DNA of 64,000 bases from Bacillota bacterium (GCA_033810155.1 JAPXKJ010000003.1:24639-88638), one strand, 5' to 3'. Numbered from the stretch's first letter, positions 3,131 through 64,000 are shown. Translations and numbers: made by a program. The notes: a model not told the origin generated them from the sequence alone.

Positions 3131-4054
3131 ATGCATTTTGCAGATAGACTCCAGGACAGGATCGACAAAGTAGACTCCAGGATTGTAATCGGTATTGATC
3201 CTGATCCCAAACGCGTTTTTTCCCCCCAGTCAAGGCTCGAACAAGCCTTTGGGAATAAGTCTTCAGAATACGTTTTGGAGGCTTTCTGCCGCACCATAGT
3301 GGATGTAGCCAAAGACTACGCATGCGCCATAAAACCTCAGGCCGCCTTTTTCGAGTGTATGGGCATCATGGGTCTTACAGTTCTTTCACGAGTGATCGCT
3401 TATGCCCGTTCGTTTGACATACCAGTTATTCTTGACGCCAAAAGAGGCGATATTGGCAATACAGCCTCCGCTTACAGCGCTGCATATCTAGAGTCCGGAT
3501 CTGATTTCTTCGCGGATGCTCTGACCGTTAATCCTTTTCTTGGCCCCGACACGCTTGCCCCATTTGTCGAGACCGCAGACAAGAACAACTGCGGTTTGTT
3601 TGTGCTCGTAAAGACATCCAACCCGGGATCTTCGGCATTTCAAGACCTCAGTGTCTTAGATGCAGGCACCAGACAGGTTGCCACAGTATCTGAGATAATC
3701 GGTGCCGAAATCGCCAGCCTTGGAGACAAAAACCTAGGTACCTGCGGATTATCCAACATTGGAGCGGTAGTTGGCGCTACGCACCCCCAAAGTATGGTTC
3801 GTTTAAGACAGATCATGCCCCGAACAATCTTCCTTCTTCCTGGCTATGGAGCGCAAGGTGGCACAGCCGCAGATGTAAGACCAGCCTTTACTTCTGACGG
3901 GAAAGGTGCAATTGTGTCTTCATCACGGCAAATCATATTTGCCTACGAGAAACTGGAAAACTCACATCCCACGGCGGAACAAGTGACCCGCGCAATCGAG
4001 GACGCTGCTTTGAAAGCACGCGACGATATAAACTCGGTGATTTCGCTGATCTAG
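3131..4054 (+). CDS. pyrF: orotidine 5'-phosphate decarboxylase (long type 2)
   Basis: 307 aa with an IVIGIDPDP...DAKRGDIGNT core. Divergent from tsaD. Confidence 0.8.
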   Translation: MHFADRLQDRIDKVDSRIVIGIDPDPKRVFSPQSRLEQAFGNKSSEYVLEAFCRTIVDVAKDYACAIKPQAAFFECMGIMGLTVLSRVIAYARSFDIPVILDAKRGDIGNTASAYSAAYLESGSDFFADALTVNPFLGPDTLAPFVETADKNNCGLFVLVKTSNPGSSAFQDLSVLDAGTRQVATVSEIIGAEIASLGDKNLGTCGLSNIGAVVGATHPQSMVRLRQIMPRTIFLLPGYGAQGGTAADVRPAFTSDGKGAIVSSSRQIIFAYEKLENSHPTAEQVTRAIEDAALKARDDINSVISLI

Positions 4055-7763: not shown

Positions 7764-8888
7764 TTAAGCTTCGATTATCTCAACGTTCGCCCTTGGAACA
7801 GTTACTATGGTTCCATCCTCCAGCTTAGCTTTGAGAATTCTGACTTTAGACTCAGACTCAATAACCTGAAGCTCAGGTGGCAATTCGACAACCTCAGCCA
7901 ACAGACCAAAGTAAGGCTCTCTAATAATCCTTATGGCCGTTCCGACAACCAACCCTTGAGCCAAATCCTCCTCAGCGGCCCCTGAGGAGCTTGTCTGATA
8001 TCCTGGGACTATTATCTCAGGTCGCATGACCCCCGCCCTAATCTGTGTAGCGCCATTGATGCAGGCCTTGAGGCCGCTGATTTTTTGGAGAAGAGAAAAA
8101 GTCCTATCTGCCATCCTCATTTGTCCGAAACCTTCGGTGATAATGACAGTAACAGGAACATCCTCGTGACCTGTAATGGCGACTCCAATATCGAATCCCA
8201 GATACTCAATTAAGTCATGGTCTACGATACCACCTACCACAATACCTCGAGCCCCTACCTCGCCCGCCTTTTTGATTGCATCTGCTGTCACGAGCGAGCC
8301 ACCGACCAACACTTTATCTGCATCGTCGCTTTTTATGTGGGAAGCTTCAAGTACATCGCTAGGAGACTCGACTGCCACCCGTACGACCCCATTCGTCTCG
8401 CCGCCTACACCGAAAATTCCCTGTATAAAGGCGCCTTCTGTGACAACAACTACGCCCTCTTTTGGCAACACTTCCTCGACCACGCCTTCGATATAGGCAT
8501 CGACCTCAACGGGAATCGGAGGTTCTCTGAGCGTTACCTGCCCGGTAACCTTCGAGATCATCTCTATTGTGCCCTCTACCGGCGACCTTGCCTCACGCTT
8601 GAAAAGGCCAAAGAAAGAACTATACTGGGCCAGGATCTCTCCTTGGTGAACGTAGTCGCCCTCTTTTTTTTGCATGTATTCCACAACGTCTTCAGCTTCT
8701 ACACCTAGAATATTGGCGATATTAACAGTCTGCGGATTGCCCGGGATACTGGTTCTCGCTACAACTGTGCTAGGCGAAACTTTCTGCCCCTTTTCAACCA
8801 AAACTTCGCCGAGGATAGGAAGGCGCCGGGTCTTTCTAATAACCGCCTTTTCCGTAACTTTTAGCCCTGGTGTATATGCGTGTGCCAT
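7764..8888 (-). CDS. uncharacterised partner protein of the ASKHA ATPase, copy 1; paralog of 11420..12778
   Basis: 374 aa. Its paralog shares the motifs GEVLVE (N-terminal, barrel-sandwich-like), GGS..T.DA..KA.EVGA.G.V.G, ITG.EDVP.TVI.TEGFG, NGATQIRAG and PRANVE. It starts 17 nt after the ATPase stop. Confidence 0.65.
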   Translation of the reverse strand: MAHAYTPGLKVTEKAVIRKTRRLPILGEVLVEKGQKVSPSTVVARTSIPGNPQTVNIANILGVEAEDVVEYMQKKEGDYVHQGEILAQYSSFFGLFKREARSPVEGTIEMISKVTGQVTLREPPIPVEVDAYIEGVVEEVLPKEGVVVVTEGAFIQGIFGVGGETNGVVRVAVESPSDVLEASHIKSDDADKVLVGGSLVTADAIKKAGEVGARGIVVGGIVDHDLIEYLGFDIGVAITGHEDVPVTVIITEGFGQMRMADRTFSLLQKISGLKACINGATQIRAGVMRPEIIVPGYQTSSSGAAEEDLAQGLVVGTAIRIIREPYFGLLAEVVELPPELQVIESESKVRILKAKLEDGTIVTVPRANVEIIEA

Positions 8889-51520: not shown

Positions 51521-52635
51521 TTATCCGTCTGCCGCCCGTTCGGCATCTTGCCGAAGTTTGGCATATATGAAGTCGTCTATATCGCCATCCATAACACGTT
51601 CCACGTTGGTTATCTCTAAGCCTGTGCGGTGGTCTTTAACCAGCGTGTATGGCTGAAAGATATATGACCTAATCTGACTTCCCCATGTAATCTCTTTTTG
51701 GGGACCCCTAAGGTTTTCAATCTCCTTTAGTTTTTCTTCCTCCTTGAGGGCCAGAAGTTTGGCTTTTAAAACCCGCATTGCCACGAGCTTATTCGAGTGC
51801 TGAGAACGCTCGTTTTGGCATGTAACGACAATGCCTGTAGGAATATGCGTGATCCTAACCGCAGAATCAGTCTTATTAACGTGCTGGCCACCTGCGCCAG
51901 AAGACCTATATGTGTCTATCTTGATCTCATCTGGGTTGATGTCTACTTCTTCTTCGGTTTCAATCTCAGGCAACACGTCCACAGATGCAAACGAGGTGTG
52001 CCTCCTCTGATTTGAATCGAAAGGAGAGATCCTTACCAGCCTGTGCACGCCCTTTTCCGGGCGCAAAAAACCATATGCGTGGTCGCCCCTAACAGAAAAA
52101 CTCACGCTTTTCAGTCCGGCTTCCTCACCAGGTAACATATCAAGAGTCTCCAGTTCAAATCCTCTACGCTCAACCCATCTAGAGTACATTCTGTAGAGCA
52201 TCTCAACCCAATCCATCGCCTCTGTACCCCCTGCACCCGCATGCAGGGTAACTATGGCGTCTCTCGAATCATACGGGCCAGAAAACAAGGTTTCAAACTC
52301 TAGGTCGTGGATCTTTCCAGACAGTTCCTCCGCCGTTTGCTTCAGATCTTCTAGAAGCGACATGTCGCCTTCTTCTTCGGCCAAAATAGCTATGGAAATA
52401 CTGTCTTCTACCTGGACCTTGAGATCGTTGAATGTGTTTAGTTTGTTTTCGATATGGCTTATTCGTCTGCCAATTGATTGCGCTCGCCTATGATCTTCCC
52501 ATACTGAAGGGTCTTGCATTTTGGCATTTAGATCCGCCAACTCCATGGATAACTTAACAGGGTCAAAGAGACCTCCCAATATTTGCTAGTCTTTCTTTCA
52601 AAGACTCCAATTCATTTATTACTTCTTCGTACATA
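51521..52635 (-). CDS. prfB: peptide chain release factor 2, expressed through a programmed +1 frameshift
   Basis: Frame 0 from ATG 52635 (GGAGGG 7 nt upstream) encodes MYEEVINELESLKERLANIGRSL and then UGA. The +1 frame continues DPVKLSMELADL... through the SPF and GGQ (SGAGGQHVNKT) motifs to 51521. Confidence 0.85.
52562..52577 (-). other. RF2 autoregulatory +1 frameshift site
   Basis: Internal SD GGGAGG (52577..52572), UCU spacer, slippery CUU UGA C (52568..52562). This is the canonical prfB shift cassette. Confidence 0.8.
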
Positions 52636-52706
52636 ATCATTCCCTCCGCTAATTACGATACCTGTGACCCATTTCCCAGACATGAATAATACGGCATTTT
52701 GCGCCG

Positions 52707-55466
52707 TTATCCAAGTTTTCCACAACAATTTTTATACTTCTTTCCGCTACCACACGGGCAGGGGTCATTTCGCCCTACTTTTTTCCCGAACTTAAGCGGT
52801 GCAGACCTTTGTTGTCCACCTTCAGGTGTATCTTGAGATTGAGGCCCGCTAAGTCTTATCACTCTCACCGGCCCCGAGGTTCCTTGACCATCTCTTTTGG
52901 ATCCGACGCCTCGTTCCTTAGATACAGTTACTCTGTAGAGATAGGAGACTGTATCTTTCTCTATATTTTGAACCATGTTCTGAAACAGTTCATAACCTTC
53001 TTTTTGATATTCAAGTAAAGGATCTCTCTGACCATACGCCCTCAGTCCTATTCCTTCGCGAAGACCCTCCATGGCACGCAGCTGGTCTATCCACTTTTGA
53101 TCAACTACTCTAAGAAGGATGAGTCGCTGCACCTCGTTGAAGTTCGGCCCAAGCATTTCTGCTTTCTCTTTGTATCCTTGATCGAAAACCTTCATGACAG
53201 CTTCTAATACAACTTCTCTGGAACTGGCAGAATCCAAAACTTTTCCGAAATCTATGGCAGGCATTAGCTCCTTGAGATAAGAAACAAGCCCGTCTATATC
53301 TGCCTCGTGGTTCCTTTCGCCCGGATTCCAAAATGCATCAAAGCCCGTTTCTACTGTCCTCGTAATCATACTCCGCAGAATATCACAAAGATCATCAAGT
53401 TCAAGTACCTGGCGTCTCTGAGCGTATATGACTTCACGCTGTTTGTTCAGAACATTGTCGTATTCGAGCACATTCTTCCTTATAGAAAAGTTGTGCGCCT
53501 CAATGCGTTTCTGGGCTGTTTCCACAGACTTGGTGATCAATGGGTGCTCTATAGGCTCGTCCTCTGAGAATCCTACCTTTTCCATAACGTTACTTATGAG
53601 GTCCCCTCCAAACAGCCGCATAAGCTCATCATCCAACGAAAGATAGAACCTCGACGAGCCCGGGTCTCCTTGTCTACCCGCTCTGCCTCTTAACTGGTTA
53701 TCTATACGCCGAGCTTCGTGGCGTTCTGTTCCAAGAACATGGAGTCCGCCCAAAGACACTACCTCGTCATGCTCTTCATCTGTCTGACTTTTGAACTGCT
53801 CAAAGAGTTCCTTGTATCTGCTTCTCGCCTCAAGAATCACATTAGTGCGCTCATCTTGTGTGCCCTCGTCTACCTTTGCAAGTATTGCTTGGGGCAGCAC
53901 CTTCTCCGAGGCGATAGATACCACTTCAGGATCATAGCCTTCTTTTCTAAGAGCCGAACGCGTCATGAAGTCAGGATTGCCACCCAGTAGGATGTCAGTT
54001 CCCCGCCCGGCCATGTTGGTTGCAATGGTCACCGCGCCTTTTCTTCCTGCCTGGGCCACTATTTCCGCTTCCCGTTCGTGATGCTTAGCGTTGAGGACTT
54101 CATGGTCGATCCCTCTTCTTTTGAGCATAGAAGATAGCATCTCTGATTTTTCCACCGAACGCGTGCCCACAAGAACGGGCCTGGCAATTTCATGCATGTG
54201 AGCAATTTCTTCAACAACAGCTTTGAACTTGGCGTCTGCTGTTTTCCAAATAGAATCGGGCATATTCGTCCTTACCAGAGCCTTATTCGGTGGAATAGAC
54301 ACAACATCCAAACCGTATATTTCTACAAACTCCGGTTCTTCAGTGGCAGCGGTTCCTGTCATGCCGGAAAGTTTGTCATACATCCTGAAGAAGTTTTGCA
54401 CTGTGATAGTAGCGAGCGTATCGCTTTCTTCTTTTATGTTTACTCCTTCTTTGGCTTCAATTGCCTGATGAAGCCCATCTGAAAATCTCCTACCTTCAAG
54501 AATGCGACCGGTAAACTCATCTACTATTAGAACCTCTCCGTTTTTCACCACGTAGTCAACATCTCGATGCATTAGCTCTTTTGCCCTTAGGGCCTGCTTA
54601 ACATAATGCTCCAACCCTATGTTGTTTTCATCGGAAAGATCCTCTATGCCCAACCATTCCTCTGTTTTTTTGATCCCTTCATCGGTCAATACGATCGTCT
54701 TAGCTTTCTCATCTATTGTGTAATGGTTATCTCTTTTTAGCGTGCGAGCCAGATCCCTAAATCTTATATACTTGTCTGTAGTGCCCTCTCCTCGGCCTGA
54801 AATTATGAGAGGGGTTCTTGCCTCATCTATCAGAATTGAATCAACCTCATCGATTACAGCGTAGTTTAGAGGGCTTTGAACGAGATCCTCCTTGCGCCAA
54901 GCCATGTTATCTCTAAGATAGTCAAAACCGAATTCCGTATTCGTACCATAGATGATAGGGCATGAATAAGAATCCTTCTTCTGAGCAACTTCCATTCCCG
55001 GGATTACAAGTCCTACATCTAAGCCCAAGAACCTGTAAATTTGACCCATCCACTCTCTATCTCGCTTTGCCAGATAGTCGTTGACCGTAACTACGTGGAC
55101 GGTAGCGCCTCCTAAGGCGTTCAGATAAGTCGGGAGAGTAGCTACGAGCGTTTTTCCTTCTCCCGTTTGCATCTCCGCAATACGTCCCTGATGAAGAACA
55201 ACACCGCCTATTATCTGAACGTCAAAGTGCCTCATATCGAGCACGCGTTTGGAAACTTCTCTGACGACGGCAAAAGCCTCGGGCAGTATTTTATCCAGCG
55301 GCTCACCTCTAGATATGCGTTCCCGGAACTCTCCGGTCTTACCTTGCAGGTTTCCGTCGGAAGCTCGCTCCAAAACCGGCTCAAATCTTCCTACCAAATC
55401 GACGATTGGACTTATTTTTCGCAGCTCCCGGTCATTGGCGTTAAACAAATTCTTTAGAATGGACAT
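52707..55466 (-). CDS. secA: preprotein translocase ATPase SecA
   Basis: DEAD-motor motifs and a C-terminal zinc-binding CPCGSGKKYKNCCG. Start assigned to ATG 55466 (AAGGAG 6 nt upstream, N-terminus MSILKNLF). Confidence 0.9.
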   Translation of the reverse strand: MSILKNLFNANDRELRKISPIVDLVGRFEPVLERASDGNLQGKTGEFRERISRGEPLDKILPEAFAVVREVSKRVLDMRHFDVQIIGGVVLHQGRIAEMQTGEGKTLVATLPTYLNALGGATVHVVTVNDYLAKRDREWMGQIYRFLGLDVGLVIPGMEVAQKKDSYSCPIIYGTNTEFGFDYLRDNMAWRKEDLVQSPLNYAVIDEVDSILIDEARTPLIISGRGEGTTDKYIRFRDLARTLKRDNHYTIDEKAKTIVLTDEGIKKTEEWLGIEDLSDENNIGLEHYVKQALRAKELMHRDVDYVVKNGEVLIVDEFTGRILEGRRFSDGLHQAIEAKEGVNIKEESDTLATITVQNFFRMYDKLSGMTGTAATEEPEFVEIYGLDVVSIPPNKALVRTNMPDSIWKTADAKFKAVVEEIAHMHEIARPVLVGTRSVEKSEMLSSMLKRRGIDHEVLNAKHHEREAEIVAQAGRKGAVTIATNMAGRGTDILLGGNPDFMTRSALRKEGYDPEVVSIASEKVLPQAILAKVDEGTQDERTNVILEARSRYKELFEQFKSQTDEEHDEVVSLGGLHVLGTERHEARRIDNQLRGRAGRQGDPGSSRFYLSLDDELMRLFGGDLISNVMEKVGFSEDEPIEHPLITKSVETAQKRIEAHNFSIRKNVLEYDNVLNKQREVIYAQRRQVLELDDLCDILRSMITRTVETGFDAFWNPGERNHEADIDGLVSYLKELMPAIDFGKVLDSASSREVVLEAVMKVFDQGYKEKAEMLGPNFNEVQRLILLRVVDQKWIDQLRAMEGLREGIGLRAYGQRDPLLEYQKEGYELFQNMVQNIEKDTVSYLYRVTVSKERGVGSKRDGQGTSGPVRVIRLSGPQSQDTPEGGQQRSAPLKFGKKVGRNDPCPCGSGKKYKNCCGKLG

Positions 55467-55516
55467 GCATATCTCCTTTTCTGCGTGCAAACTCACAAAC
55501 AATCAAACAGTTTTGC

Positions 55517-56101
55517 CTATATATCTCTGCCTTTAATTCTACCATTCTTCTGCCTCTGCGAAAAACTTGCATGCATTGCGTTCATTATGAACAAGAAGAT
55601 TCCCGCCGCCATGAATATGTCGCCTAGACTAAACGTGGTGGGCGCTTTGGAAAGAAACTTCCAAGAGAATATATCTGCAAGAAACGTAAGCGTTGTGTTA
55701 TCCCCTAACATGCAGTGAGTAAAACTGGAAGAGAGCACTGATATTTGGCTGCCCAAGACATCGGGGCCTAGCGGAGACAAATCAACAGGCATTCTGCCTC
55801 CATTGGCCATTATGACTAGGAAATTCAAAAATACTCCAAACGCAAGCACCCTAAACCCACGCAATCTTAGATTTGGATAAAGGCCGTAAAATAGCATAAG
55901 GTAAGTAACGAAACTTAAGACGAGGCAAATCTGCGGATACGGCTCAAATCTACCGCTTAGCAACTTGATCGATGCGATTTTCACCAAGAATGAACCCGCA
56001 ATCCACACCACTCTATCAAGGTCTACATCTGCAAGCCGAGAAATCTTGCCTCCCGAAACTAGCCCAACAACCAGGGAAACGACCATTACGGTTAGGAACA
56101 A
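55517..56101 (-). CDS. DUF5317-family integral membrane protein
   Basis: Six hydrophobic segments. Typical genomic partner of HD-GYP phosphodiesterases in Clostridia. Confidence 0.55.
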   Translation of the reverse strand: MFLTVMVVSLVVGLVSGGKISRLADVDLDRVVWIAGSFLVKIASIKLLSGRFEPYPQICLVLSFVTYLMLFYGLYPNLRLRGFRVLAFGVFLNFLVIMANGGRMPVDLSPLGPDVLGSQISVLSSSFTHCMLGDNTTLTFLADIFSWKFLSKAPTTFSLGDIFMAAGIFLFIMNAMHASFSQRQKNGRIKGRDI

Positions 56102-56105
56102 CGGA

Positions 56106-57371
56106 TCACTTCCTTAGAATCTTTTCATCTATTACTTTGAGCATAGCTTCTACCACTTGGGGATCAAACTGAGTTCCACTGCACCTTATGATCTCTTTTC
56201 TAGCCTCTTCATAGTCCATCCTTTCTTTGTACGGCCGATCTGTTGTCATAGCATCAAAAGCGTCTGCGCAGGCAATAATACGCGCTTCTAGAGGTATCTC
56301 TTCACCACGTAATCCTTTCGGGAAACCTGTACCATCCCATCTCTCATGGTGGTATCTCACCCACTCCGCACCCTTACTCAATGTCTTCATCGCCCCAATA
56401 ATATCTGCCCCTATATCAACATGCTTCTTCATTTCTTCATATTCTTCGTACGTAAAATAGTCTGTTTTCTTTAATATGTTGTCAGGTATTCCTACTTTGC
56501 CCACATCATGCAAAAGGGCAACGTGTTTCAGTAAGTCCACCTCTTCGTCGTCAAGTCCCATTTCTTTTCCTAGTAACCCAGAGTATTCGGACACCCTTAT
56601 GGAATGGCCCTGGGTATACGGATCTCTTGCATCTACAGCCGTACCCAAAGCCTCAGCCATTTCGCCATAGGTGTCTTTTAGATCCACATATTTCTGAAGG
56701 GACATCTTAGTCACGACTAAAGGCAGATAAAACAACAGAAGCACAAGGGGCCCAGCTTGTTTCGTTACAACAACCATAAGGGCGCCGAGAGGAAATAGAG
56801 CGAACATATTAGGCAACATCCACACTATGTTCTGGCGCCAAATGGTCAGGAAAGATAGTCCGGTTTGAAGGGACACAAATTCTCCGGTCATGACAGCATT
56901 GAGCATCGTGTAAGCTAGCGCCGCTAATACAAAAGCCAGAAGTCCTGAAGGAAATTCCAAGAATCCAAATTCGCCGCCCAGAAAAGCGTACACAATGGAG
57001 AACACATAGGCGCATATGCTTAGCATCCCCCTGTTGAATAGTACTAGTTTGAGAGGAACCTGCCCTACTAAGTCTCGTCTGCGAAGAGTAAACAACGCTG
57101 CCACCCACATACCTATGGCAGGACCGTGCAGAACGATAACCGTGAAAATGAGAGGGGCAGCGACGGAAGCGGTACCTTTCCCCTTTGGGAAAGGAATTGC
57201 CAGAGTCTCGCCAAAAGCTATGAGCGCTCCCAAAAAACATACTTCTAAAAAGTGAGCCCAACCCTCGAATGAAGGAATGTTCATACATAGCAACGCAATA
57301 CCAAGGCATATTATGCCCCATAAATACACATCAAAGGACTTGAGACTCTTATTCAACGGTAGACACCTCAT
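56106..57371 (-). CDS. membrane-anchored HD-GYP domain c-di-GMP phosphodiesterase
   Basis: N-terminal polytopic domain, then HVALLHDVGK and HHERWDGTGFPKG, i.e. HD and GYP motifs. Confidence 0.8.
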   Translation of the reverse strand: MRCLPLNKSLKSFDVYLWGIICLGIALLCMNIPSFEGWAHFLEVCFLGALIAFGETLAIPFPKGKGTASVAAPLIFTVIVLHGPAIGMWVAALFTLRRRDLVGQVPLKLVLFNRGMLSICAYVFSIVYAFLGGEFGFLEFPSGLLAFVLAALAYTMLNAVMTGEFVSLQTGLSFLTIWRQNIVWMLPNMFALFPLGALMVVVTKQAGPLVLLLFYLPLVVTKMSLQKYVDLKDTYGEMAEALGTAVDARDPYTQGHSIRVSEYSGLLGKEMGLDDEEVDLLKHVALLHDVGKVGIPDNILKKTDYFTYEEYEEMKKHVDIGADIIGAMKTLSKGAEWVRYHHERWDGTGFPKGLRGEEIPLEARIIACADAFDAMTTDRPYKERMDYEEARKEIIRCSGTQFDPQVVEAMLKVIDEKILRK

Positions 57372-57631
57372 GACCAGGCCGACAGCCCCGGCAGAAACTC
57401 TAACCTACTTGAAAGTTCGCCGCTCCAGCCAAAAGGAGCGTGAGGATGGCGAAAATCACCCTGAGAACCTTCTTATTCACCTAAAAACCCCCCGTCAACT
57501 GGCTGAATCTGAATCGCTAGATCAGATTCATTTAGCTCCGCTGATGAAAGTTGCCGGGCTGTCGGCATAGTAATTTGTTCAACGACTGTTTCGATTAGTC
57601 CTTCTATTAAGTAGTGCAAATCCGTCTGATC

Positions 57632-58273
57632 TCATGCATTCGCCATAAGCCTTGGAAACCGCCGATTAACCGCATCAAGAGTCGCCTTTACCACCGCTTC
57701 CCTTTCGTCATATGAAACAGGACAAGAACCCGTTAGGGTTAGTTCCCTGCCATCCTCAATAACACCAAGAACAACCAGAGCCGTTCGCAGAGATCTTGAC
57801 TCGTATACATTTACATCTCTAAGAGAAATATTAACACTTTCTTTCAAGAAATGACTAAGAGCGTTTACAGTAGCTTCTGCGCAAAACCAGTTCCATCTGG
57901 TCGCAGTGGCAATTCCTTCACTTTCTCCGAGAGAAACTACTCCACCCAAAGCAAGTCTTACTCTAGCAACAGCAGATGATCCGCTTGCCATGAGCTCTAT
58001 CCCGACCAGTTTCGGCCGAGCGACAAAAGCCAATTCTGTGTCGGTCATCTGAACGATCGAAATCTTACCTTTATCGATCTTTTCTCCGGATGCCGCCAAG
58101 ATGGCAGATTCTACATCGCGTATTACATATTTGGGCGAACGACCTGTTCGCGCCACGACATTAATTTCGTCGACATTGTTGTCCTCGCCAATGGAAACTC
58201 GACAATCCAACACGTCATTTATCTTCTTGATGATGTCCTCATAATCTTTGGCTGAATGATCCTTGATGCCCAT
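57632..58273 (-). CDS. hypothetical protein (213 aa)
   Basis: No family recognised. Co-directional with and 33 nt downstream of the 396-aa gene. Confidence 0.45.
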   Translation of the reverse strand: MGIKDHSAKDYEDIIKKINDVLDCRVSIGEDNNVDEINVVARTGRSPKYVIRDVESAILAASGEKIDKGKISIVQMTDTELAFVARPKLVGIELMASGSSAVARVRLALGGVVSLGESEGIATATRWNWFCAEATVNALSHFLKESVNISLRDVNVYESRSLRTALVVLGVIEDGRELTLTGSCPVSYDEREAVVKATLDAVNRRFPRLMANA

Positions 58274-58306
58274 TTTTATGCACTCCCAATTGGAAAAGCG
58301 CTTCGA

Positions 58307-59497
58307 TCACATATACGGGGCCATAATTGCAGTGTTATGACGATACCCTGAATCTTCTTTCTCCTTAGCAACCATCTCTGCCATAATCCACAGTCCCGCA
58401 GCCACCAGACTGTGCCCGCCAAGTATAACCGGGACAGGGCATTCAACCGCGCTCTTAGTAAAATCCCTTACCCACTCATCTTCAATCAATTGGTACTGGC
58501 CTAGATCTGAGTAGAACCTGTCCCAATCGGAAACTTGACCCTTAAGATGAGCAAAAATCACTCTTGTATCGATGAAGGCTAGATCGCAGACACGAGACAG
58601 ATACTCAAAAAACATCTTCGGGCCGACCTCATTTATCATAAAACCTAATAGAGATACAACTTCTCCTCTTTCTTCTCGACCCAATGCCTTCATACCTCTC
58701 TCCTCAGAAAACACACGCATTCTATGCACCATGTTGGAGTTTATATATTGTATGACCGCAGGCCCCACTCGTCCTATCACCGCTATCTCACGTGAATCTT
58801 GCCTAAGTATTCGTAAGGCATCATTTAGGTTCTGAGTAGGCCAATCGAGAGAACTTATGATCCTTGATGATCTCGGTCCACAGTTAGGATGCAGACCAAG
58901 TACCAGGATATCAGTTGGGGTATCTATATCGAAATTGACCCTACCCGAGTTAGGCACAAGAAGCCGCCGCATTCCAATGTCGCGAAGCAAATTGCCAAGG
59001 ACGTTGTCATTCTCAGGTAGTTCAACCTCATCGATTGCTCTTGCAGGAGTAAAGGCAACCAGGTCTGCGGACTGGACATTATTCATTATGACTGTATTTC
59101 GGCTCTGCTTGAGCGTAAGGGCAATCTGGTCAAACTCTTCCAAATACACAAGGGGGGCAGCTGTCCCCCCCATATACAACACGTTTTCTAATCGGTAATT
59201 GACGATTATCTCCCTTAATCTACGTCCAAAGTGGAACTTGCCATCATCTGGCTCCAAATCAACTATTGCGAACTCTGACGCTTCGCGCGCGAGGTCTTCG
59301 TAATTGGTTGCAAGTATGATTTCGTCAATTTCCGGTGCCAATGCCAGCTTAGACAGTGTATCTAGGGCAATCTCTTTCCGGATGTCTTTGATCTTTGCAT
59401 CTAGAGAAGTTTTCGGTTTACCACCTTCAAACATTACTGCGGTAACCTTAGGTTGTTCCAAGCTGGCTCCCCCGCTTAACATAGACAAGTTTCCCAA
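58307..59497 (-). CDS. hypothetical two-domain protein (396 aa)
   Basis: No motif I can assign. It starts 6 nt after the hpf stop, so it is probably co-transcribed. Confidence 0.45.
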   Translation of the reverse strand: MGNLSMLSGGASLEQPKVTAVMFEGGKPKTSLDAKIKDIRKEIALDTLSKLALAPEIDEIILATNYEDLAREASEFAIVDLEPDDGKFHFGRRLREIIVNYRLENVLYMGGTAAPLVYLEEFDQIALTLKQSRNTVIMNNVQSADLVAFTPARAIDEVELPENDNVLGNLLRDIGMRRLLVPNSGRVNFDIDTPTDILVLGLHPNCGPRSSRIISSLDWPTQNLNDALRILRQDSREIAVIGRVGPAVIQYINSNMVHRMRVFSEERGMKALGREERGEVVSLLGFMINEVGPKMFFEYLSRVCDLAFIDTRVIFAHLKGQVSDWDRFYSDLGQYQLIEDEWVRDFTKSAVECPVPVILGGHSLVAAGLWIMAEMVAKEKEDSGYRHNTAIMAPYM

Positions 59498-59503
59498 AAG
59501 CCC

Positions 59504-60019
59504 CTATATTTCCGGCTCAATGAGACCAAAGTTGCCGTCTTTTCTTCTGTAGATCACGTTAACCAAACCGGTTTCCCCGTTTGCAAAAACAAAGAAATCG
59601 TGACCCAAAAGCTCCATCTGCATCGCAGCTTCTTCAGGCATCATAGGTTTCATGGCAAATCTCTTGACTTTTACGATCCTTCCCGTTTCCGGTTCTTCCT
59701 CATGTTCTGACAACCGAGGTTCTTGCTTATCGCGCTTAAGAAGCCTCGTCTTATATTTGTCCAGCTGCCGCTCGAGTTTCTCAACAACCAGGTCTACTGA
59801 GGCAAACGCGTCCTGGGCCGACTCTTCTGCCCTCAAAATCATGCCGTTGAGAGGTAGCGTAACTTCAACCACGTACCTGCCCCGCTGAGTTGAAAACATC
59901 ACCTGGCACAAACAAGAATCCTGCTTTACATACTTATCCAATTTGGACAATTTCTTCTCTGCATATTCCCGAAGTGCGGGGCTTACATTCATGTTCTTAC
60001 CTCTTACGTTGATCTCCAT
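59504..60019 (-). CDS. hpf: ribosome hibernation promoting factor (long form)
   Basis: MEINVRGKNMNVSPALREYAEKKLSKL N-terminus and a C-terminal dimerisation domain. Confidence 0.85.
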   Translation of the reverse strand: MEINVRGKNMNVSPALREYAEKKLSKLDKYVKQDSCLCQVMFSTQRGRYVVEVTLPLNGMILRAEESAQDAFASVDLVVEKLERQLDKYKTRLLKRDKQEPRLSEHEEEPETGRIVKVKRFAMKPMMPEEAAMQMELLGHDFFVFANGETGLVNVIYRRKDGNFGLIEPEI

Positions 60020-60323
60020 GTGGCATGCCTCCTCGAAATAACCGTTACTTTTGCCTTTGGATTATGCGAATAACCAAAGATCTCTTCGTACTATACAATA
60101 AGTTCTCCGAGCCCATTCCATATACCTTTCATATGGCTTTACACGACGCTTCAATCTCAATTCAATAATACGCTAAACCCATACATGTGTGAACCTGCAA
60201 TCCACATAACTGTGCACAATGGAAGATAGCATCTAAGTGGTTATCAACACAATTATCCACACTATCCCCAGATATCATTATGCAGTTTTCGCCCACCGTT
60301 CACTACAAAATCAAAAATACTTG

Positions 60324-60352
60324 TTGACTCTTTCTTCTTATCGTGCTATATT
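60324..60352 (+). promoter_or_regulatory. sigma-A promoter of cspA
   Basis: TTGACT (60324..60329), 17 nt, TATATT (60347..60352). AGGAGG lies about 11 nt before the ATG and the leader is about 70 nt. Confidence 0.6.
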
Positions 60353-60426
60353 CGCAACACGAGCTAAAAGCTCCAAAAGATGTTGGGTTGGGGCCCAGCG
60401 TCGGGAATTAGGAGGAATGTCCCACA

Positions 60427-60630
60427 ATGCAAGGTACAGTAAAATGGTTTAACGCGCAAAAAGGCTTCGGTTTCATTCAACGTGATGACGGTCCAGACGT
60501 ATTCGTACACTATTCGGCAATCAAATCTGACGGGTTTCGTACGCTTAACGAAGGCGATCTTGTAGAATTCGAAATCGTAGAAGGCCCCAAAGGCCTGCAA
60601 GCTGCAGAAGTGACTAGAATTTCTGAGTAA
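60427..60630 (+). CDS. cspA: cold-shock protein (CspA family)
   Basis: [17 protein letters not shown]...VFVHYSAI carries the RNP1 and RNP2 motifs. Confidence 0.9.
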
Positions 60631-60679: not shown

Positions 60680-61048
60680 CTACAAAACGGTATCAAATCG
60701 TCCCCCTGAGTAGTTACCGGTGGAATAAGCTGATAAGACCCTTAATTGAGTGATGACATCCGAGATCTCGTGACTGATGTTCGTCATTTCTTGTTGCAGA
60801 AGCGAGGCAATCTCCTTATCCAACTCGCCTACTGAAACTATGATCTCTTTGATTGATTCAAATTCTTTATCTCCTAATTGAGGATTGCCACAGGAGTCTA
60901 TTCGTTTGAGGATCTCTTCCCTTTCCGATATTATCGACTCAAGACTCGAAAAGTCTCCACCCTGCGCAAAAGTTAGTGCTTTCTTGGTCAGTTCTAAAAG
61001 GTCTTTGAACATGTTAAGCATGGCTTCTAATCGCTTCTTCCCAACCAT
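60680..61048 (-). CDS. fliT: flagellar chaperone FliT-like protein (alternatively FlgN-like)
   Basis: 122-aa helical protein immediately after fliS, in the B. subtilis order fliD-fliS-fliT-hpf. Sequence similarity is weak. Confidence 0.4.
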   Translation of the reverse strand: MVGKKRLEAMLNMFKDLLELTKKALTFAQGGDFSSLESIISEREEILKRIDSCGNPQLGDKEFESIKEIIVSVGELDKEIASLLQQEMTNISHEISDVITQLRVLSAYSTGNYSGGRFDTVL

Positions 61049-61409
61049 CTCTAATTTCGGTCATAATCGTAATCGCGGCTTCTACTTGCTCTGGATCTTT
61101 TTTGAGGTTTGCGGATACGAGCGATGAATAAACAAAATCGTACACAGATGCAAGACTGTCTGCAATCTCACCTGTGCTGAAATCCAGGGATACTCTCAGT
61201 TCGTCAATGATATCTTGCGCACGTATGAGGCTTTCATTTGCACCGCTGTAATTTTTGTCCGCTATGCATTGCATTGCCCTCCGCATGGACTTGAGACAAC
61301 CATCGTACAGCATAAGTACCAGTTCAGCTGGTGAAGCAGTCTCTACCTTCGACTGCCTGTATACTTCAAGCGCTTTGTCTATATTTCCCACATACCCTAC
61401 ATTCACCAA
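61014..61409 (-). CDS. fliS: flagellar export chaperone FliS
   Basis: ASPAELVLMLYDGCLK is the FliS signature. Confidence 0.8.
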   Translation of the reverse strand: MVNVGYVGNIDKALEVYRQSKVETASPAELVLMLYDGCLKSMRRAMQCIADKNYSGANESLIRAQDIIDELRVSLDFSTGEIADSLASVYDFVYSSLVSANLKKDPEQVEAAITIMTEIRDGWEEAIRSHA

Positions 61410-61440
61410 AGCCTATCACCTATCTTTCTTCTACTTCATC

Positions 61441-62793
61441 TTAACCGCTGAACATAGACAACATTTGCTGAGATAACCACATTGACTGGGTTTCCATTCT
61501 GGCCAAATACGTTTCTAGGGCAGTAAACTTCCTTTGAAGACCCGCAAGTTTCATGTCCAAACGCTTCTGGACGTTGTCGATCTGCTTTGATATATCCTTG
61601 TTCTCTGACTCAAACTGAGCATCTTTCAGCGGTAAAAAACCGTTGTACGAAGTGTACATCTGCAAGGTGCTCTCTAGCGTCTTGAAAACGCCGTTGGAGC
61701 CTGAGCTACCCTCGACAAAAAGAGAAGCCACTGATTCTCTGTCGGTTGAAAGCGCCTCTTTCAATTTTGACTCATCAATAGATATTTTACCGTCCCGCGA
61801 GAAAGCGCCGATTGCTCCGGTGCTTATCCCAACCTGCCCTACAAACTTGAAACCCGGGAGATCGATAGATGCAAACAACGTGCTCTGAATTTCGGAAAGC
61901 AATCTCTGGAGCAATGGATCTCCGAAAAGAAGTCCGCTGGATTTAGTGTCATTATCCCAGAAATTGTAACGCGAAGTGAGGTCAATCAGGGAGTTGTATT
62001 CATCTGCAAATGACTTAACTGCGCTTACAATTGAATCATCGTTGTAGGCTACTGATAAGGAGGTTTCCCCTGTTTTCAAAAGATCAAGAGTGACTCCTTG
62101 AATGGCATCGGATACTTTGTTTGAGTCTCTTTCAAACGTAACACCGTTTATCTTGAAACTTGAATTCGATGCTGAGACTACTTGCGAGATATCGAATGTG
62201 TTGCCTTCTGCAAGAGTCTCAACTATGGCAATTTCTTTGCCAGTGGATTCTCCCGTAAGCACAAGAGAGTACTCGTTGGGTCTAACCTGCAAGACAGAAG
62301 CCCTGATTCCCATTTCACCCTGGTTTATCTTGTCGGCAACCGTGTTTAGAGTATCTGACTCGACAATATCAACTGAAAATGGATCTGAACCATCAAGGGT
62401 AAGAGTCAGGCTTCCCGACATGCCCAGTGAAACATCAGGTCCCTGTGAAAAAACCCTAGATTGAAGAACATGGGATCGGGCAAGCGTTAGCACTTCAATG
62501 TCGTATCTGCCCACCGCGGCCGATTCAGATGCCGATGCAGAAACAATGCTCAGGTCACTTACCTTCGGCGTTTTGGTATTGTAAAGGCTCTCTTTCGTAA
62601 GCGTCCCTATCTTTGAAAGAACCGCATCGACTTTGGTCTTAATAGCATTCCAAGCAGCTCTTTTTTCTGCAACTGCTTGTTTTTTCAATTCCAGTTTCTC
62701 TATGGGAATTCTCTCTACTTTCATTAGCTGTTCAATGATATTTTGCGTATCTAGTCCGGTCATATTCATGGTAACCTTTGAACTCATGCTCAC
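61441..62793 (-). CDS. fliD: flagellar filament capping protein FliD (HAP2)
   Basis: 450 aa with N- and C-terminal heptad regions and a typical FliD_N/FliD_C layout. Confidence 0.8.
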   Translation of the reverse strand: MSMSSKVTMNMTGLDTQNIIEQLMKVERIPIEKLELKKQAVAEKRAAWNAIKTKVDAVLSKIGTLTKESLYNTKTPKVSDLSIVSASASESAAVGRYDIEVLTLARSHVLQSRVFSQGPDVSLGMSGSLTLTLDGSDPFSVDIVESDTLNTVADKINQGEMGIRASVLQVRPNEYSLVLTGESTGKEIAIVETLAEGNTFDISQVVSASNSSFKINGVTFERDSNKVSDAIQGVTLDLLKTGETSLSVAYNDDSIVSAVKSFADEYNSLIDLTSRYNFWDNDTKSSGLLFGDPLLQRLLSEIQSTLFASIDLPGFKFVGQVGISTGAIGAFSRDGKISIDESKLKEALSTDRESVASLFVEGSSGSNGVFKTLESTLQMYTSYNGFLPLKDAQFESENKDISKQIDNVQKRLDMKLAGLQRKFTALETYLARMETQSMWLSQQMLSMFSG

Positions 62794-62953
62794 ACCTCCA
62801 AAGAGTATATTTCCACCACCTGCACATAACTACAGACACACAGTCCTTACTTAGTTTTCAACCAGCGTAGATCCCAAAAAGGGTTCCGGATTTGAGGATT
62901 ATTTCACATATCCTTCAACAATGTAATCGTATATAAGGGAGTATAGATTAGCC

Positions 62954-63208
62954 TTATTCTTCTTTATCCTCTTTTTTTAGGAGCTCGCGTTTTAAGCGAT
63001 CCAAATCCAAAATGGAATCTTTCGCCAGGGTCATCTCTTCGGCGATCTCGACCTCTACCTCTTCCCGCAGGATCTTTGTCCCAGAAGGAGCTTCGATTCC
63101 CAGTTTTACAAACGCCTTAGAACCTTTGCCCCTTATTTCCGTGACCCGTATGATGATATCGTCACCTATGAGTATTGCTTCGCCCTGCTTTCTCGATAGA
63201 ACAAGCAT
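62954..63208 (-). CDS. csrA: carbon storage regulator CsrA
   Basis: MLVLSRKQGEAILIGDDIIIRV...GIEAP is a near-consensus CsrA. Confidence 0.85.
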   Translation of the reverse strand: MLVLSRKQGEAILIGDDIIIRVTEIRGKGSKAFVKLGIEAPSGTKILREEVEVEIAEEMTLAKDSILDLDRLKRELLKKEDKEE

Positions 63209-63210
63209 AT

Positions 63211-63663
63211 CTAGCCCGTCCTCTTCATAAGATTCTGTAGCTCGACAAATACATTGTGCCTAGTACTATACTCCTGGGAAATAGTAATTACCTGCCTACC
63301 CAAACGTTTGGAAGGGTTAATCACCAGAGGCGCCTGAAGATTTACTGTCATATCTCTCACTTCTTCCGGCAGAGTCACTACTGAAAGGAGCACAAGATCT
63401 CCAGGATTTGAGGCTTCCAGAATCTCCAAATCCTTTGGGGTAAACTCAGGATCGTAGTCTTTGAATACAAGCCTAGGATCCAATATTACGAAGCCCAGGG
63501 ATTGGTCATCAAGGCTTTGAAGCCACTTAAAGACACCAAAATCGTCAAGGTCGAAAACAAAAAACCTTTTGCATGATTGAAACCCTATAAGACCTTCCGG
63601 AAAATCTATGACCTGGTCGTCTCGTATATGCAGTACCCCAAACTGTCTTGTGGGAAATTCCAT
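63211..63663 (-). CDS. fliW: flagellar assembly factor FliW
   Basis: 150 aa, and 2 nt before csrA, matching the conserved fliW-csrA pair. Confidence 0.8.
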   Translation of the reverse strand: MEFPTRQFGVLHIRDDQVIDFPEGLIGFQSCKRFFVFDLDDFGVFKWLQSLDDQSLGFVILDPRLVFKDYDPEFTPKDLEILEASNPGDLVLLSVVTLPEEVRDMTVNLQAPLVINPSKRLGRQVITISQEYSTRHNVFVELQNLMKRTG

Positions 63664-63716
63664 ACGAATCCCTCCTGCCGGACATAACCTCTCTTTTCCA
63701 AAAACCAGTACAGGTC

Positions 63717-64000
63717 CTAATGTAAATAGTCTAGTAGACTAGGCTGAATGAGTCTTGCTCCTACAGCAAGCGCAGTCTGATAGGCCATCTGCTGGGACAT
63801 AAGTTTTACAACTACTTCGGTAATATCTACCTCTTCCACATTTGCCAATACCCTTTTGTACTCGACATACATTTCGCCCGCTTTTTCTTCCAGGGTATCT
63901 AGTCTCCGAAGTTTTGCGCCGTTTTCAGCCCTATGAGATAGCACCTTATCCAAACATTTGTCTATTCCTTCTGCAGCATCTTTGATATCATCGACATTCG
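63717..64000 (-). CDS. flgL: flagellar hook-associated protein 3 FlgL (or flagellin-family protein); C-terminal part only
   Basis: The C-terminal ...MSQQMAYQTALAVGARLIQPSLLDYL matches the flagellin/FlgL C-terminal helix. The gene runs off the window end. Confidence 0.55.
   Translation of the reverse strand, partial: NVDDIKDAAEGIDKCLDKVLSHRAENGAKLRRLDTLEEKAGEMYVEYKRVLANVEEVDITEVVVKLMSQQMAYQTALAVGARLIQPSLLDYLH

Follow-up and report, generated by a model that had tools for sequence, protein, structure and literature searches.

What holds four genes together between the gene for a ribosome hibernation factor and secA, and how might they be controlled? The question is raised by a stretch of 64,000 nucleotides (nt) from a Bacillota bacterium (GCA_033810155.1, JAPXKJ010000003.1:24639-88638), referred to here in its whole length as the window. 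Downstream of hpf, which encodes the long-form ribosome hibernation-promoting factor, it carries two genes here called X and Y, a gene for a membrane HD-GYP protein of the cyclic di-GMP (c-di-GMP) phosphodiesterase type, and a gene for a DUF5317 membrane protein, followed by secA. An earlier note on this DNA, made from the sequence alone, had given the order hpf-X-Y-gap-HD-GYP-DUF5317-secA, all co-directional; order, direction and coordinates proved to be as claimed, on the minus strand, and the identities of hpf, the HD-GYP gene and DUF5317 were borne out by Pfam and NCBIfam, that of secA by translation of its open reading frame (ORF). The 260-nt leader described between Y and the HD-GYP gene exists as a gap but is not empty, since it holds a conserved gene for a micropeptide as well as an RNA structure with covarying helices. 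Altogether, the region may be read, with a probability of roughly 0.45, as a conserved module hpf-[X]-Y-(structured leader + micropeptide gene)-MASE9-HD-GYP-DUF5317-secA, in which a membrane c-di-GMP phosphodiesterase would be controlled post-transcriptionally through translation of the micropeptide.

Conservation of the gene cluster

Relatives of Y were collected by scanning one genome per species, which gave at least 569 matches, and 80 species-level loci were analysed. A contig from a Candidatus Fermentithermobacillaceae metagenome-assembled genome (Bacillota) shows 100% identity with the window along the Y gene. For synteny, six-frame ORFs were scored with profiles of the window proteins, and only loci with enough flank were counted. 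The gene next after Y encodes a MASE9-HD-GYP protein in 63 of 69 loci, across a gap of about 170-340 nt, and DUF5317 comes next after the HD-GYP gene in 54 of 59. Upstream of Y, hpf is found in 44 of 62 loci, and secA lies downstream in 37 of 59; X is present in 25 of 62 (about 40%), in each case together with hpf and placed between it and Y. Represented among the loci are Fermentithermobacillaceae, Thermincola, Symbiobacterium, Dethiobacter, Thermosediminibacter and Carboxydocellales, and also Coriobacteriia, other Actinomycetota and Chthonomonadia. The arrangement is thus strongly conserved, in at least three phyla: Bacillota, Actinomycetota (Coriobacteriia) and Armatimonadota. A lack of conservation, which the earlier note had named as grounds to refute its own reading, was therefore not seen. 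Because of this spread, it looks like an ancient arrangement, with Bacillus as a reduced state, rather than the local insertion of four genes that the earlier note had proposed.

Several lineages carry only part of the cluster. In Desulfosporosinus and its relatives, a block of Y, leader, micropeptide gene, HD-GYP gene and DUF5317 lies elsewhere in the genome, without hpf or secA. Moorella has hpf-Y-secA only. Distant homologues of X occur in the same cluster, some of them with a gene for a B12-binding radical S-adenosylmethionine (SAM) enzyme between hpf and X. From these variants, it follows that the stable core consists of Y, the gap, the HD-GYP gene and DUF5317, and that X, which goes with hpf and Y, is an accessory gene. 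The proposed link of the two unknown proteins to second-messenger genes is supported; Y keeps the HD-GYP gene and DUF5317 beside it even where hpf and secA are missing.

A micropeptide gene in the leader

The small ORF (sORF) in the gap starts with GTG and has 26 codons. Its product, MNKKVLRVIFAILTLLLAGAANFQVG, combines a basic N-terminus, about 17 hydrophobic residues, an LAG(G/A)A motif and a short aromatic/polar-basic tail. An equivalent ORF is found in nearly every locus, usually with 24-29 codons (20 in two loci) and with a strong Shine-Dalgarno (SD) sequence 6-9 nt upstream; in D. meridiei, for example, the product is MSKLFKAISVLVTLVLAGGATFRW, encoded behind an AAGGAGG ribosome-binding site. 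The sORF is present in 63 of 63 loci with an adjacent HD-GYP gene and absent from the two Moorella loci without one. Its peptides follow the consensus M-(S/N/K)-K-x-x-K-x-I-x-x-L-x-T-L-V-L-A-G-G-A-x-(F/W/Y)-(R/K/Q)-x. When the 63 distinct loci are compared in pairs, the nucleotide differences amount to 0.465, 0.336 and 0.685 at the first, second and third codon position, and the share of differing codons that are synonymous is 32% in frame vs 7% and 5% in the shifted frames. Judged by these codon signatures, the sORF is a genuine protein-coding gene with its peptide sequence under purifying selection. No annotated gene stands between Y and the HD-GYP gene on the four contigs with listed public gene calls, and the peptide gave nothing above noise in Pfam or NCBIfam. 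Its composition predicts a single-helix membrane micropeptide. Identification as a lipoprotein or a Phr-type pheromone precursor was set aside, as there were only sub-threshold matches to signal-like models and no conserved cysteine.

Two kinds of divergent locus were seen. In the Chthonomonadia loci L079 (about 3201-3317) and L080 (about 8752-8868), the RNA core and the long-range helix described below are kept, and the sORF peptide is a different one of 38 amino acids (aa) ending in a polyproline tail (...IYPPPKPPPPPSASY), at which a ribosome stall just before the 3' strand of that helix would be expected. In L065 (8791-9460), the HD-GYP gene and DUF5317 have apparently decayed to fragments, and the leader and an intact sORF, MKTIAKVVMALVALVLAGGANWKW, are kept.

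Structure of the leader RNA

The leader is framed by a long-range helix, P1, formed between a GRCCGRC box downstream of the Y stop codon and a GYCGGYC sequence just past the sORF stop. The box usually lies within about 30 nt of the Y stop, and about 60 nt from it in the window's clade. Compensatory variants of the two strands are numerous (for example GACCGGCGG/CCGCCGGTC, GGACCAACGCCG/CGGCGTTGGTCC, GAGCCAACGG/CCGTTGGCTC and CCCCCTATCTTCCC/GGGAAGGTAGGGGG), minimum free energy (MFE) folds recover the helix, and P1 arms taken from the same locus pair better than arms taken from different loci (score 31.8 vs 21.3; Mann-Whitney p 6e-28). The leader core is enclosed by P1 and lies immediately 5' of the sORF SD. 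It comprises an (N)AGCG(R)AGCGG doublet, a hairpin, P2, with UAGCGR in the loop, and then a purine-rich stretch. In an alignment of 57 sequences, AGCG-AG and UAGCG are invariant.

RNAalifold run on a plain MAFFT alignment of these 57 leader cores returned no structure, because variable loops shift the stems out of register. This problem was met by alignment to a covariance model, together with the permutation of same-locus and cross-locus arms. The model, built on P2 and searched over 100 sources (1.27 Mb in total), gave 68 matches, exactly one per matching locus; that in the window has an E value of 2.4e-5. In the covariance-model alignment, P2 positions pair in 82.1% of cases vs 61.5% in shuffles (0/500), covariation is 0.556 vs 0.233 in shuffles (0/500) and 0.13-0.24 in slid controls, and all 7 pairs have changes on both sides. 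A composite sequence pattern, expected 0.03 times in the window, is found there a single time; each of 38 loci likewise has one copy, in every case within the leader. When a stricter pattern was scanned over metagenomes, 120 stretches were found, of which 48 have the Y/sORF/HD-GYP context and 44 of these 48 have stems of at least 6 base pairs (bp); in the 72 outside that context, stems are mostly of only 3-5 bp, as for chance matches. P1 and P2 are thus covarying helices around near-invariant AGCGG and UAGCGR elements, in a motif restricted to one kind of locus. Rfam 15, which includes the c-di-GMP-I/II and raiA families, gave no leader match at E<=1 for the window and four related loci, and no gathering-level match anywhere in the window. 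In the literature on HD-GYP proteins with riboswitch candidates, no listed title or abstract was found that describes this element.

A stretch rich in pyrimidines immediately 5' of the doublet can pair with the sORF SD and spacer; in some clades the doublet or the linker takes its place. Examples are CCCC/GGGG, CCUCGA/UCGAGG, GGAAAACC/GGUUUUCC and UUUAUAGCCU/AGGCUAUAAA. The support is modest: same-locus pairs score 16.3 vs 14.4 for cross-locus pairs (p 5e-6), and MFE folds agree. The positions of the elements relative to the genes are also regular. In most loci, the P1 3' strand follows the sORF stop after 0-20 nt, and in the window after 6 nt; in several others, mainly one Desulfosporosinus group, the distance is about 40-80 nt. 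From the end of P1 to the SD of the HD-GYP gene the median is 8 nt (interquartile range 6-12), and 3 nt in the window. A general role of P1 as an intrinsic terminator was rejected, because a U-tract follows it in only 17 of 58 loci, the window not among them.

The MASE9-HD-GYP enzyme and DUF5317

In the HD-GYP protein, Pfam HD_5 is matched at E 3.6e-37 (128 bits vs a cut-off of 27.2) and HD at 8.6e-26; N-terminal to these, residues 100-221 match MASE9 (PF20972) at 27.8 bits (cut-off 24.3). The HD motif is intact (LLHDVGK). The DUF5317 protein matches PF17248 at E 1e-30 (107.2 bits vs a cut-off of 25). In the literature searched, DUF5317 is mentioned in no paper, and MASE9 in this sense appears only in one preprint (Galperin & Chou, bioRxiv 10.1101/2021.11.05.467447), where the domain is proposed to bind a ligand within the membrane. 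A second, tandem HD-GYP gene was seen between the MASE9-HD-GYP gene and DUF5317 in ten loci (L017, L019, L033, L035, L059, L060, L073, L075, L076 and L085) and in several metagenome loci; L033 also has two tandem Y genes.

Proteins X and Y

The earlier note had found no recognisable motifs in X and Y. This is true at the sequence level, where neither has a significant Pfam or NCBIfam match, and at that level only, because the structure prediction suggested in the same note, once carried out, gave clear folds for both. The N-terminal domain of X (about residues 18-215) is predicted to be a MobA-like GT-A nucleotidyltransferase, closest to CofC/FbiD; it is followed by an alpha/beta domain of about 160 aa (about 236-382) for which no relatives were detectable in the PDB. 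Three aspartates, D145, D190 and D192, are invariant in 82 sequences. In FbiD, a Mg2+/phosphate site is made by D116, D188 and D190 (PMC6450877), and D190-x-D192 of X would correspond to D188-x-D190 by position, not by structural superposition. X of the window has no Pfam match at all, to CofC or otherwise, and 11 of 82 relatives match the generic NTP_transf_3 model only. No F420 biosynthesis gene is among the listed neighbours of X, which are hpf, Y and a radical SAM gene; Y adjoins X in every locus examined. Despite its predicted CofC/FbiD-like fold, X is outside the CofC sequence family, and its C-terminal domain is, on this model, new. In another Bacillota lineage (L083, 4669-6000; L086, 4626-5984), the B12-binding radical SAM gene stands between hpf and X, and X has an extra C-terminal TrkA_C domain fused to it. 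Radical SAM neighbour and TrkA_C domain together hint that X is part of a small-molecule pathway.

Y is a soluble protein of two predicted domains, an N-terminal alpha-beta-beta-alpha-beta domain and a C-terminal domain with the (beta-beta-beta-alpha)x2 fold of the LeuA allosteric domain. The window protein scores 14.2 bits against LeuA_dimer (PF08502), under the cut-off of 24.9; across the family, the best member reaches E 4.3e-5, and 39 of 82 members match weakly. The family, absent from Pfam, has about 3,700 clusters at 50% identity. Several Arg/Lys residues of the N-terminal domain are conserved or near-invariant, and the predicted fold is a dimer-forming, allosteric one. Y is thus, as modelled, a LeuA-type allosteric fold joined to a new N-terminal domain.

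Proposed control of the module and alternatives

The geometry of the leader suggests how these parts could work together. The leader core (anti-SD, AGCGG doublet and P2 with its UAGCGR loop) would set the accessibility of the micropeptide SD in answer to an effector, for which Y is the first candidate and a small molecule the second. Unmelted, P1 would abut the ribosome-binding site of the HD-GYP gene; a ribosome that translates the sORF to its stop would have to melt P1, and translation of HD-GYP and DUF5317 would therefore be coupled to that of the micropeptide. Once released, the hydrophobic 26-mer may insert in the membrane and associate there with the MASE9 sensor, DUF5317 or both, whether as a partner or as a ligand inside the membrane, which fits the published suggestion of an in-membrane MASE9 ligand (Galperin & Chou, bioRxiv 10.1101/2021.11.05.467447). 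Y would be a soluble ligand-binding regulator, as its LeuA-type allosteric fold suggests. X would be an accessory nucleotidyltransferase of CofC/FbiD-like type and may produce or alter a phospho-metabolite that serves as a signal, a speculation drawn from its predicted fold and its strict adjacency to Y.

Several observations weigh against this reading. The anatomy of the module is seen directly in the comparisons; its mechanism we infer from geometry. The SD-sequestering helix is weakly supported, and its 5' partner differs between clades. One locus, L085 (7861-8076), has P1 and an sORF (MARLLKAIVALITLIFAAGSHLQIG) without the AGCGG or UAGCGR elements. No RNA-binding fold was detected in Y, and its predicted folds are not classical RNA-binding ones. 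Moorella Y keeps every conserved N-terminal residue (NRNPKQIVRDVES...DHKKISVVQ) without leader, sORF or HD-GYP gene, so the core function of Y is independent of the leader. Finally, the window enzyme has the signature HHERWDGTGFP, with GFP in place of the GYP of HHExxDGxGYP; GFP occurs in all 13 Fermentithermobacillaceae-type loci (L003-L015), and the remaining 47 first-copy enzymes with a detectable signature have GYP. The tyrosine of the signature normally contacts a phosphate oxygen of c-di-GMP (Galperin & Chou, bioRxiv 10.1101/2021.11.05.467447). Because of this replacement, the activity of the window enzyme is uncertain, and its c-di-GMP activity or specificity may differ.

It is possible, though on balance unlikely, that Y itself is a trans-acting RNA-binding protein, an oligomer of which would occupy the AGCGG pentamer repeats and thereby govern how the micropeptide and the HD-GYP protein are translated, according to the ligand of its LeuA-like domain. 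TRAP and HutP are oligomeric RNA-binding attenuation proteins with multi-site operators, and the repeated NAG-CG pentamers resemble these operators; the Y gene is always directly 5' of the leader, and the conserved Arg/Lys residues and dimer-forming allosteric fold would suit such a role. Position, fold and repeated RNA elements are also what would favour Y as the effector in the module as proposed above. The intact Moorella protein and the lack of a detectable RNA-binding fold argue against direct binding, however, as does the replacement of R25 and R45 in some leader-bearing loci.

A metabolite riboswitch is rather unlikely. The leader core would then open and close the sORF ribosome-binding site with no protein effector, in answer to c-di-GMP, pGpG, another guanine nucleotide or the product of X. 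Genes for c-di-GMP phosphodiesterases are a typical setting for cyclic-dinucleotide riboswitches, and near-invariant unpaired nucleotides flanked by covarying helices, kept in three phyla upstream of such a gene, are what would be expected; since no Rfam family matches, the class would be a new one. However, most riboswitch classes control several gene types, whereas this motif was seen at one kind of locus only. The number and order of AGCGG doublets also vary, from three in Desulfosporosinus leaders to none in L085, so repeated protein-binding sites or alternative pairing would fit better than a fixed ligand pocket.

That there is no regulated switch at all seems improbable. The sORF would in that case encode a third structural subunit, and P1 would be an element of mRNA processing or stability (an RNase III site, for example, that separates hpf-X-Y from the HD-GYP transcript) or a plain device for translational coupling. 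The helix is a long perfect duplex of 10-20 bp, of the kind cleaved by RNase III, the scarcity of U-tracts speaks against a general terminator, and the micropeptide sequence is itself under purifying selection; the near-invariant AGCGG and UAGCGR elements and the covariation of P2 inside P1 would nevertheless be left unexplained. Hardly credible is the view that these genes are neighbours by inherited synteny around hpf and secA only, with X and Y unrelated to c-di-GMP signalling: hpf, secA and prfB are ancient housekeeping neighbours, and Moorella has hpf-Y-secA without an HD-GYP gene, but in Desulfosporosinus and relatives the block from Y to DUF5317 has moved as a unit from hpf and secA, and X adjoins Y throughout.

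A bolder form of the micropeptide-controlled module can also be put forward, and is itself unlikely. The AGCGG leader would represent a novel class of RNA switch, working as a riboswitch or by way of Y, through which the breakdown of c-di-GMP is tied to the stationary-phase locus of hpf and secA. The ligand of Y would be a novel metabolite, nucleotide-linked and produced by X, with the B12-radical SAM enzyme in some lineages, and the activity of MASE9-HD-GYP would be set by the micropeptide as a ligand inside the membrane.

HD-GYP enzymes that carry a membrane MASE domain are common. This locus offers three deeply conserved candidate partners for them: a micropeptide without a gene call on the contigs checked, the Y family and an RNA absent from Rfam. 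Control of a MASE9 HD-GYP phosphodiesterase thereby becomes directly testable. The module is present in cultured species, including Desulfosporosinus meridiei, Thermosediminibacter litoriperuensis and Fonticella tunisiensis, and L085 is a natural variant useful for dissecting the leader. In anaerobic Bacillota and Coriobacteriia, as the arrangement further suggests, ribosome hibernation (hpf), c-di-GMP turnover and secretion (secA) may be physically linked.

Gene starts and neighbouring features

Two gene starts probably differ from those of the ORFs given in Table 1. For X, the ATG at 59482 is more likely, because a 99%-identical homologue (P0001) has 391 aa; the gene would then begin 21 nt after hpf and not 6 nt, as the earlier note had it. 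For the HD-GYP gene, TTG 57356 is more likely than ATG 57371, because the latter overlaps a GAGGTG-N7-TTG ribosome-binding site that is kept in relatives.

Table 1. Genes and leader elements of the module, with positions counted from the first letter of the window
Feature	Position	Strand	Basis or remark
hpf, long-form ribosome hibernation-promoting factor	59504..60019	-	Pfam Ribosomal_S30AE + Ribosom_S30AE_C; NCBIfam TIGR00741
X, 396-aa ORF	58307..59497	-	Probable start ATG 59482, giving 391 aa
Y, 213-aa soluble two-domain protein	57632..58273	-	
P1 5' strand, ACTATGCCGACAGCCCGGCA, with conserved GRCCGRC box	57552..57571	-	Sequence reading, helix search, MFE folds
Leader core RNA motif	57478..57559	-	Composite pattern, covariance model, P2 covariation
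Doublet AGCGGAGC in leader core	57535-57542	-	
P2 hairpin	57505-57529	-	Loop TCTAGCGA at 57514-57521
sORF SD, GGGGGG	57488-57493	-	
sORF start, GTG	57478-57480	-	
Anti-SD, further component of leader core 57478..57559		-	
sORF, 26 aa	57400..57480	-	Cross-locus coding signature
P1 3' strand, TGCCGGGGCTGTCGGCCTGGT	57373..57393	-	6 nt past sORF stop, 3 nt before HD-GYP SD
MASE9-HD-GYP protein, 421-aa ORF	56106..57371	-	Probable SD GAGGTG 57364-57369, probable start TTG 57356
DUF5317 membrane protein, 194-aa ORF	55517..56101	-	Pfam PF17248; start 4 nt past HD-GYP stop
secA, downstream boundary of the cluster	52707..55502	-	ORF translation
prfB	from 52579 downwards	-	

Beyond the module, prfB (52540-52640, minus strand) contains a programmed +1 frameshift site of the classical kind, in which TCT CTT TGA C comes after GGGAGG. 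Its short N-terminal frame begins close to ATG 52634; what is listed as a long ORF from 52579 is the frame read after the shift. On the other side, upstream of hpf, fliS, fliD, csrA, fliW and the end of a flagellar hook-associated gene lie at 60680-63953 (minus strand), a flagellar and regulatory block as in Bacillus, assigned from ORF translations only. Opposite in direction to these, a cold-shock protein gene (csp) lies at 60427-60630 (plus strand); its 5' untranslated region and start (60258-60600) match the cspA thermoregulator RF01766 below threshold (41 bits vs a gathering score of 78, E 2.7e-8), and a related locus, L043, reaches 49.7 bits.

Comparison with known systems

HPF, the MASE9-HD-GYP protein and DUF5317 belong to known families. 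The closest described enzymes are the MASE9-HD-GYP phosphodiesterases TM1467 of T. maritima and HdgA of S. venezuelae, which share with the window enzyme the Pfam architecture MASE9 + HD_5/HD, that is, a sensor domain integral to the membrane with an HD-GYP domain in the cytoplasm; the window's clade differs from them in having GFP, not GYP. In the preprint on these enzymes, hpf and secA are not mentioned (Galperin & Chou, bioRxiv 10.1101/2021.11.05.467447), and no description of an upstream micropeptide gene, a structured leader, Y or a DUF5317 partner was found in the literature searched.

X may be compared with the CofC/FbiD guanylyltransferases of F420 biosynthesis (PDB 2i5e, 6bwg/6bwh, 7p97; PMC6450877), from which it differs in its lack of a CofC Pfam match, in its additional C-terminal domain and in its partners, hpf, Y and, in some lineages, the radical SAM gene. 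Y recalls the LeuA_dimer domain of isopropylmalate and citramalate synthases (PDB 3f6g, 3fig). It is a stand-alone protein, however, without the catalytic TIM barrel and with a different N-terminal domain.

The raiA motif RNA (RF03072) is a structured RNA found near hpf/raiA in Bacillota and Actinomycetota. The leader differs from it in lying downstream of Y and in having no Rfam match, and the window has no raiA match. A bona fide raiA motif RNA (162.6 bits) was seen in the Coriobacteriia locus L060 (2840-3076), several kb upstream of hpf.

Like SecM-secA, MifM-yidC2 and leader peptides in general, the sORF would, by its translation, remodel the mRNA beside a downstream ribosome-binding site, and secA lies further downstream. 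A role as a SecM/MifM-like secretion monitor for secA was nevertheless rejected: at 24-29 aa the peptide is shorter than the ribosomal exit tunnel, which rules out its co-translational monitoring by the Sec or YidC machinery, and the next gene encodes the HD-GYP protein. Unlike in SecM and MifM, no conserved arrest motif was seen among the sORF peptides (mostly 24-29 aa, 20 in two loci and 38 in Chthonomonadia).

With nothing matching in Pfam, NCBIfam, Rfam or the literature searched, the micropeptide and the leader RNA are new, and the locus holds several new families. The type of system is more familiar. Small membrane regulators such as MgrB, which acts on PhoQ, MgtS, AcrZ and KdpF have about 25-50 aa, consist of a single hydrophobic helix and act on a larger membrane protein, and some, for example KdpF, are encoded in the operon of their partner. 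The micropeptide, known from its sequence alone, differs from these as a new sequence family encoded inside a long-range RNA helix and behind a conserved RNA motif. By analogy, the module resembles a cis-regulatory leader with a translated upstream ORF combined with a small membrane protein that acts at a sensor.

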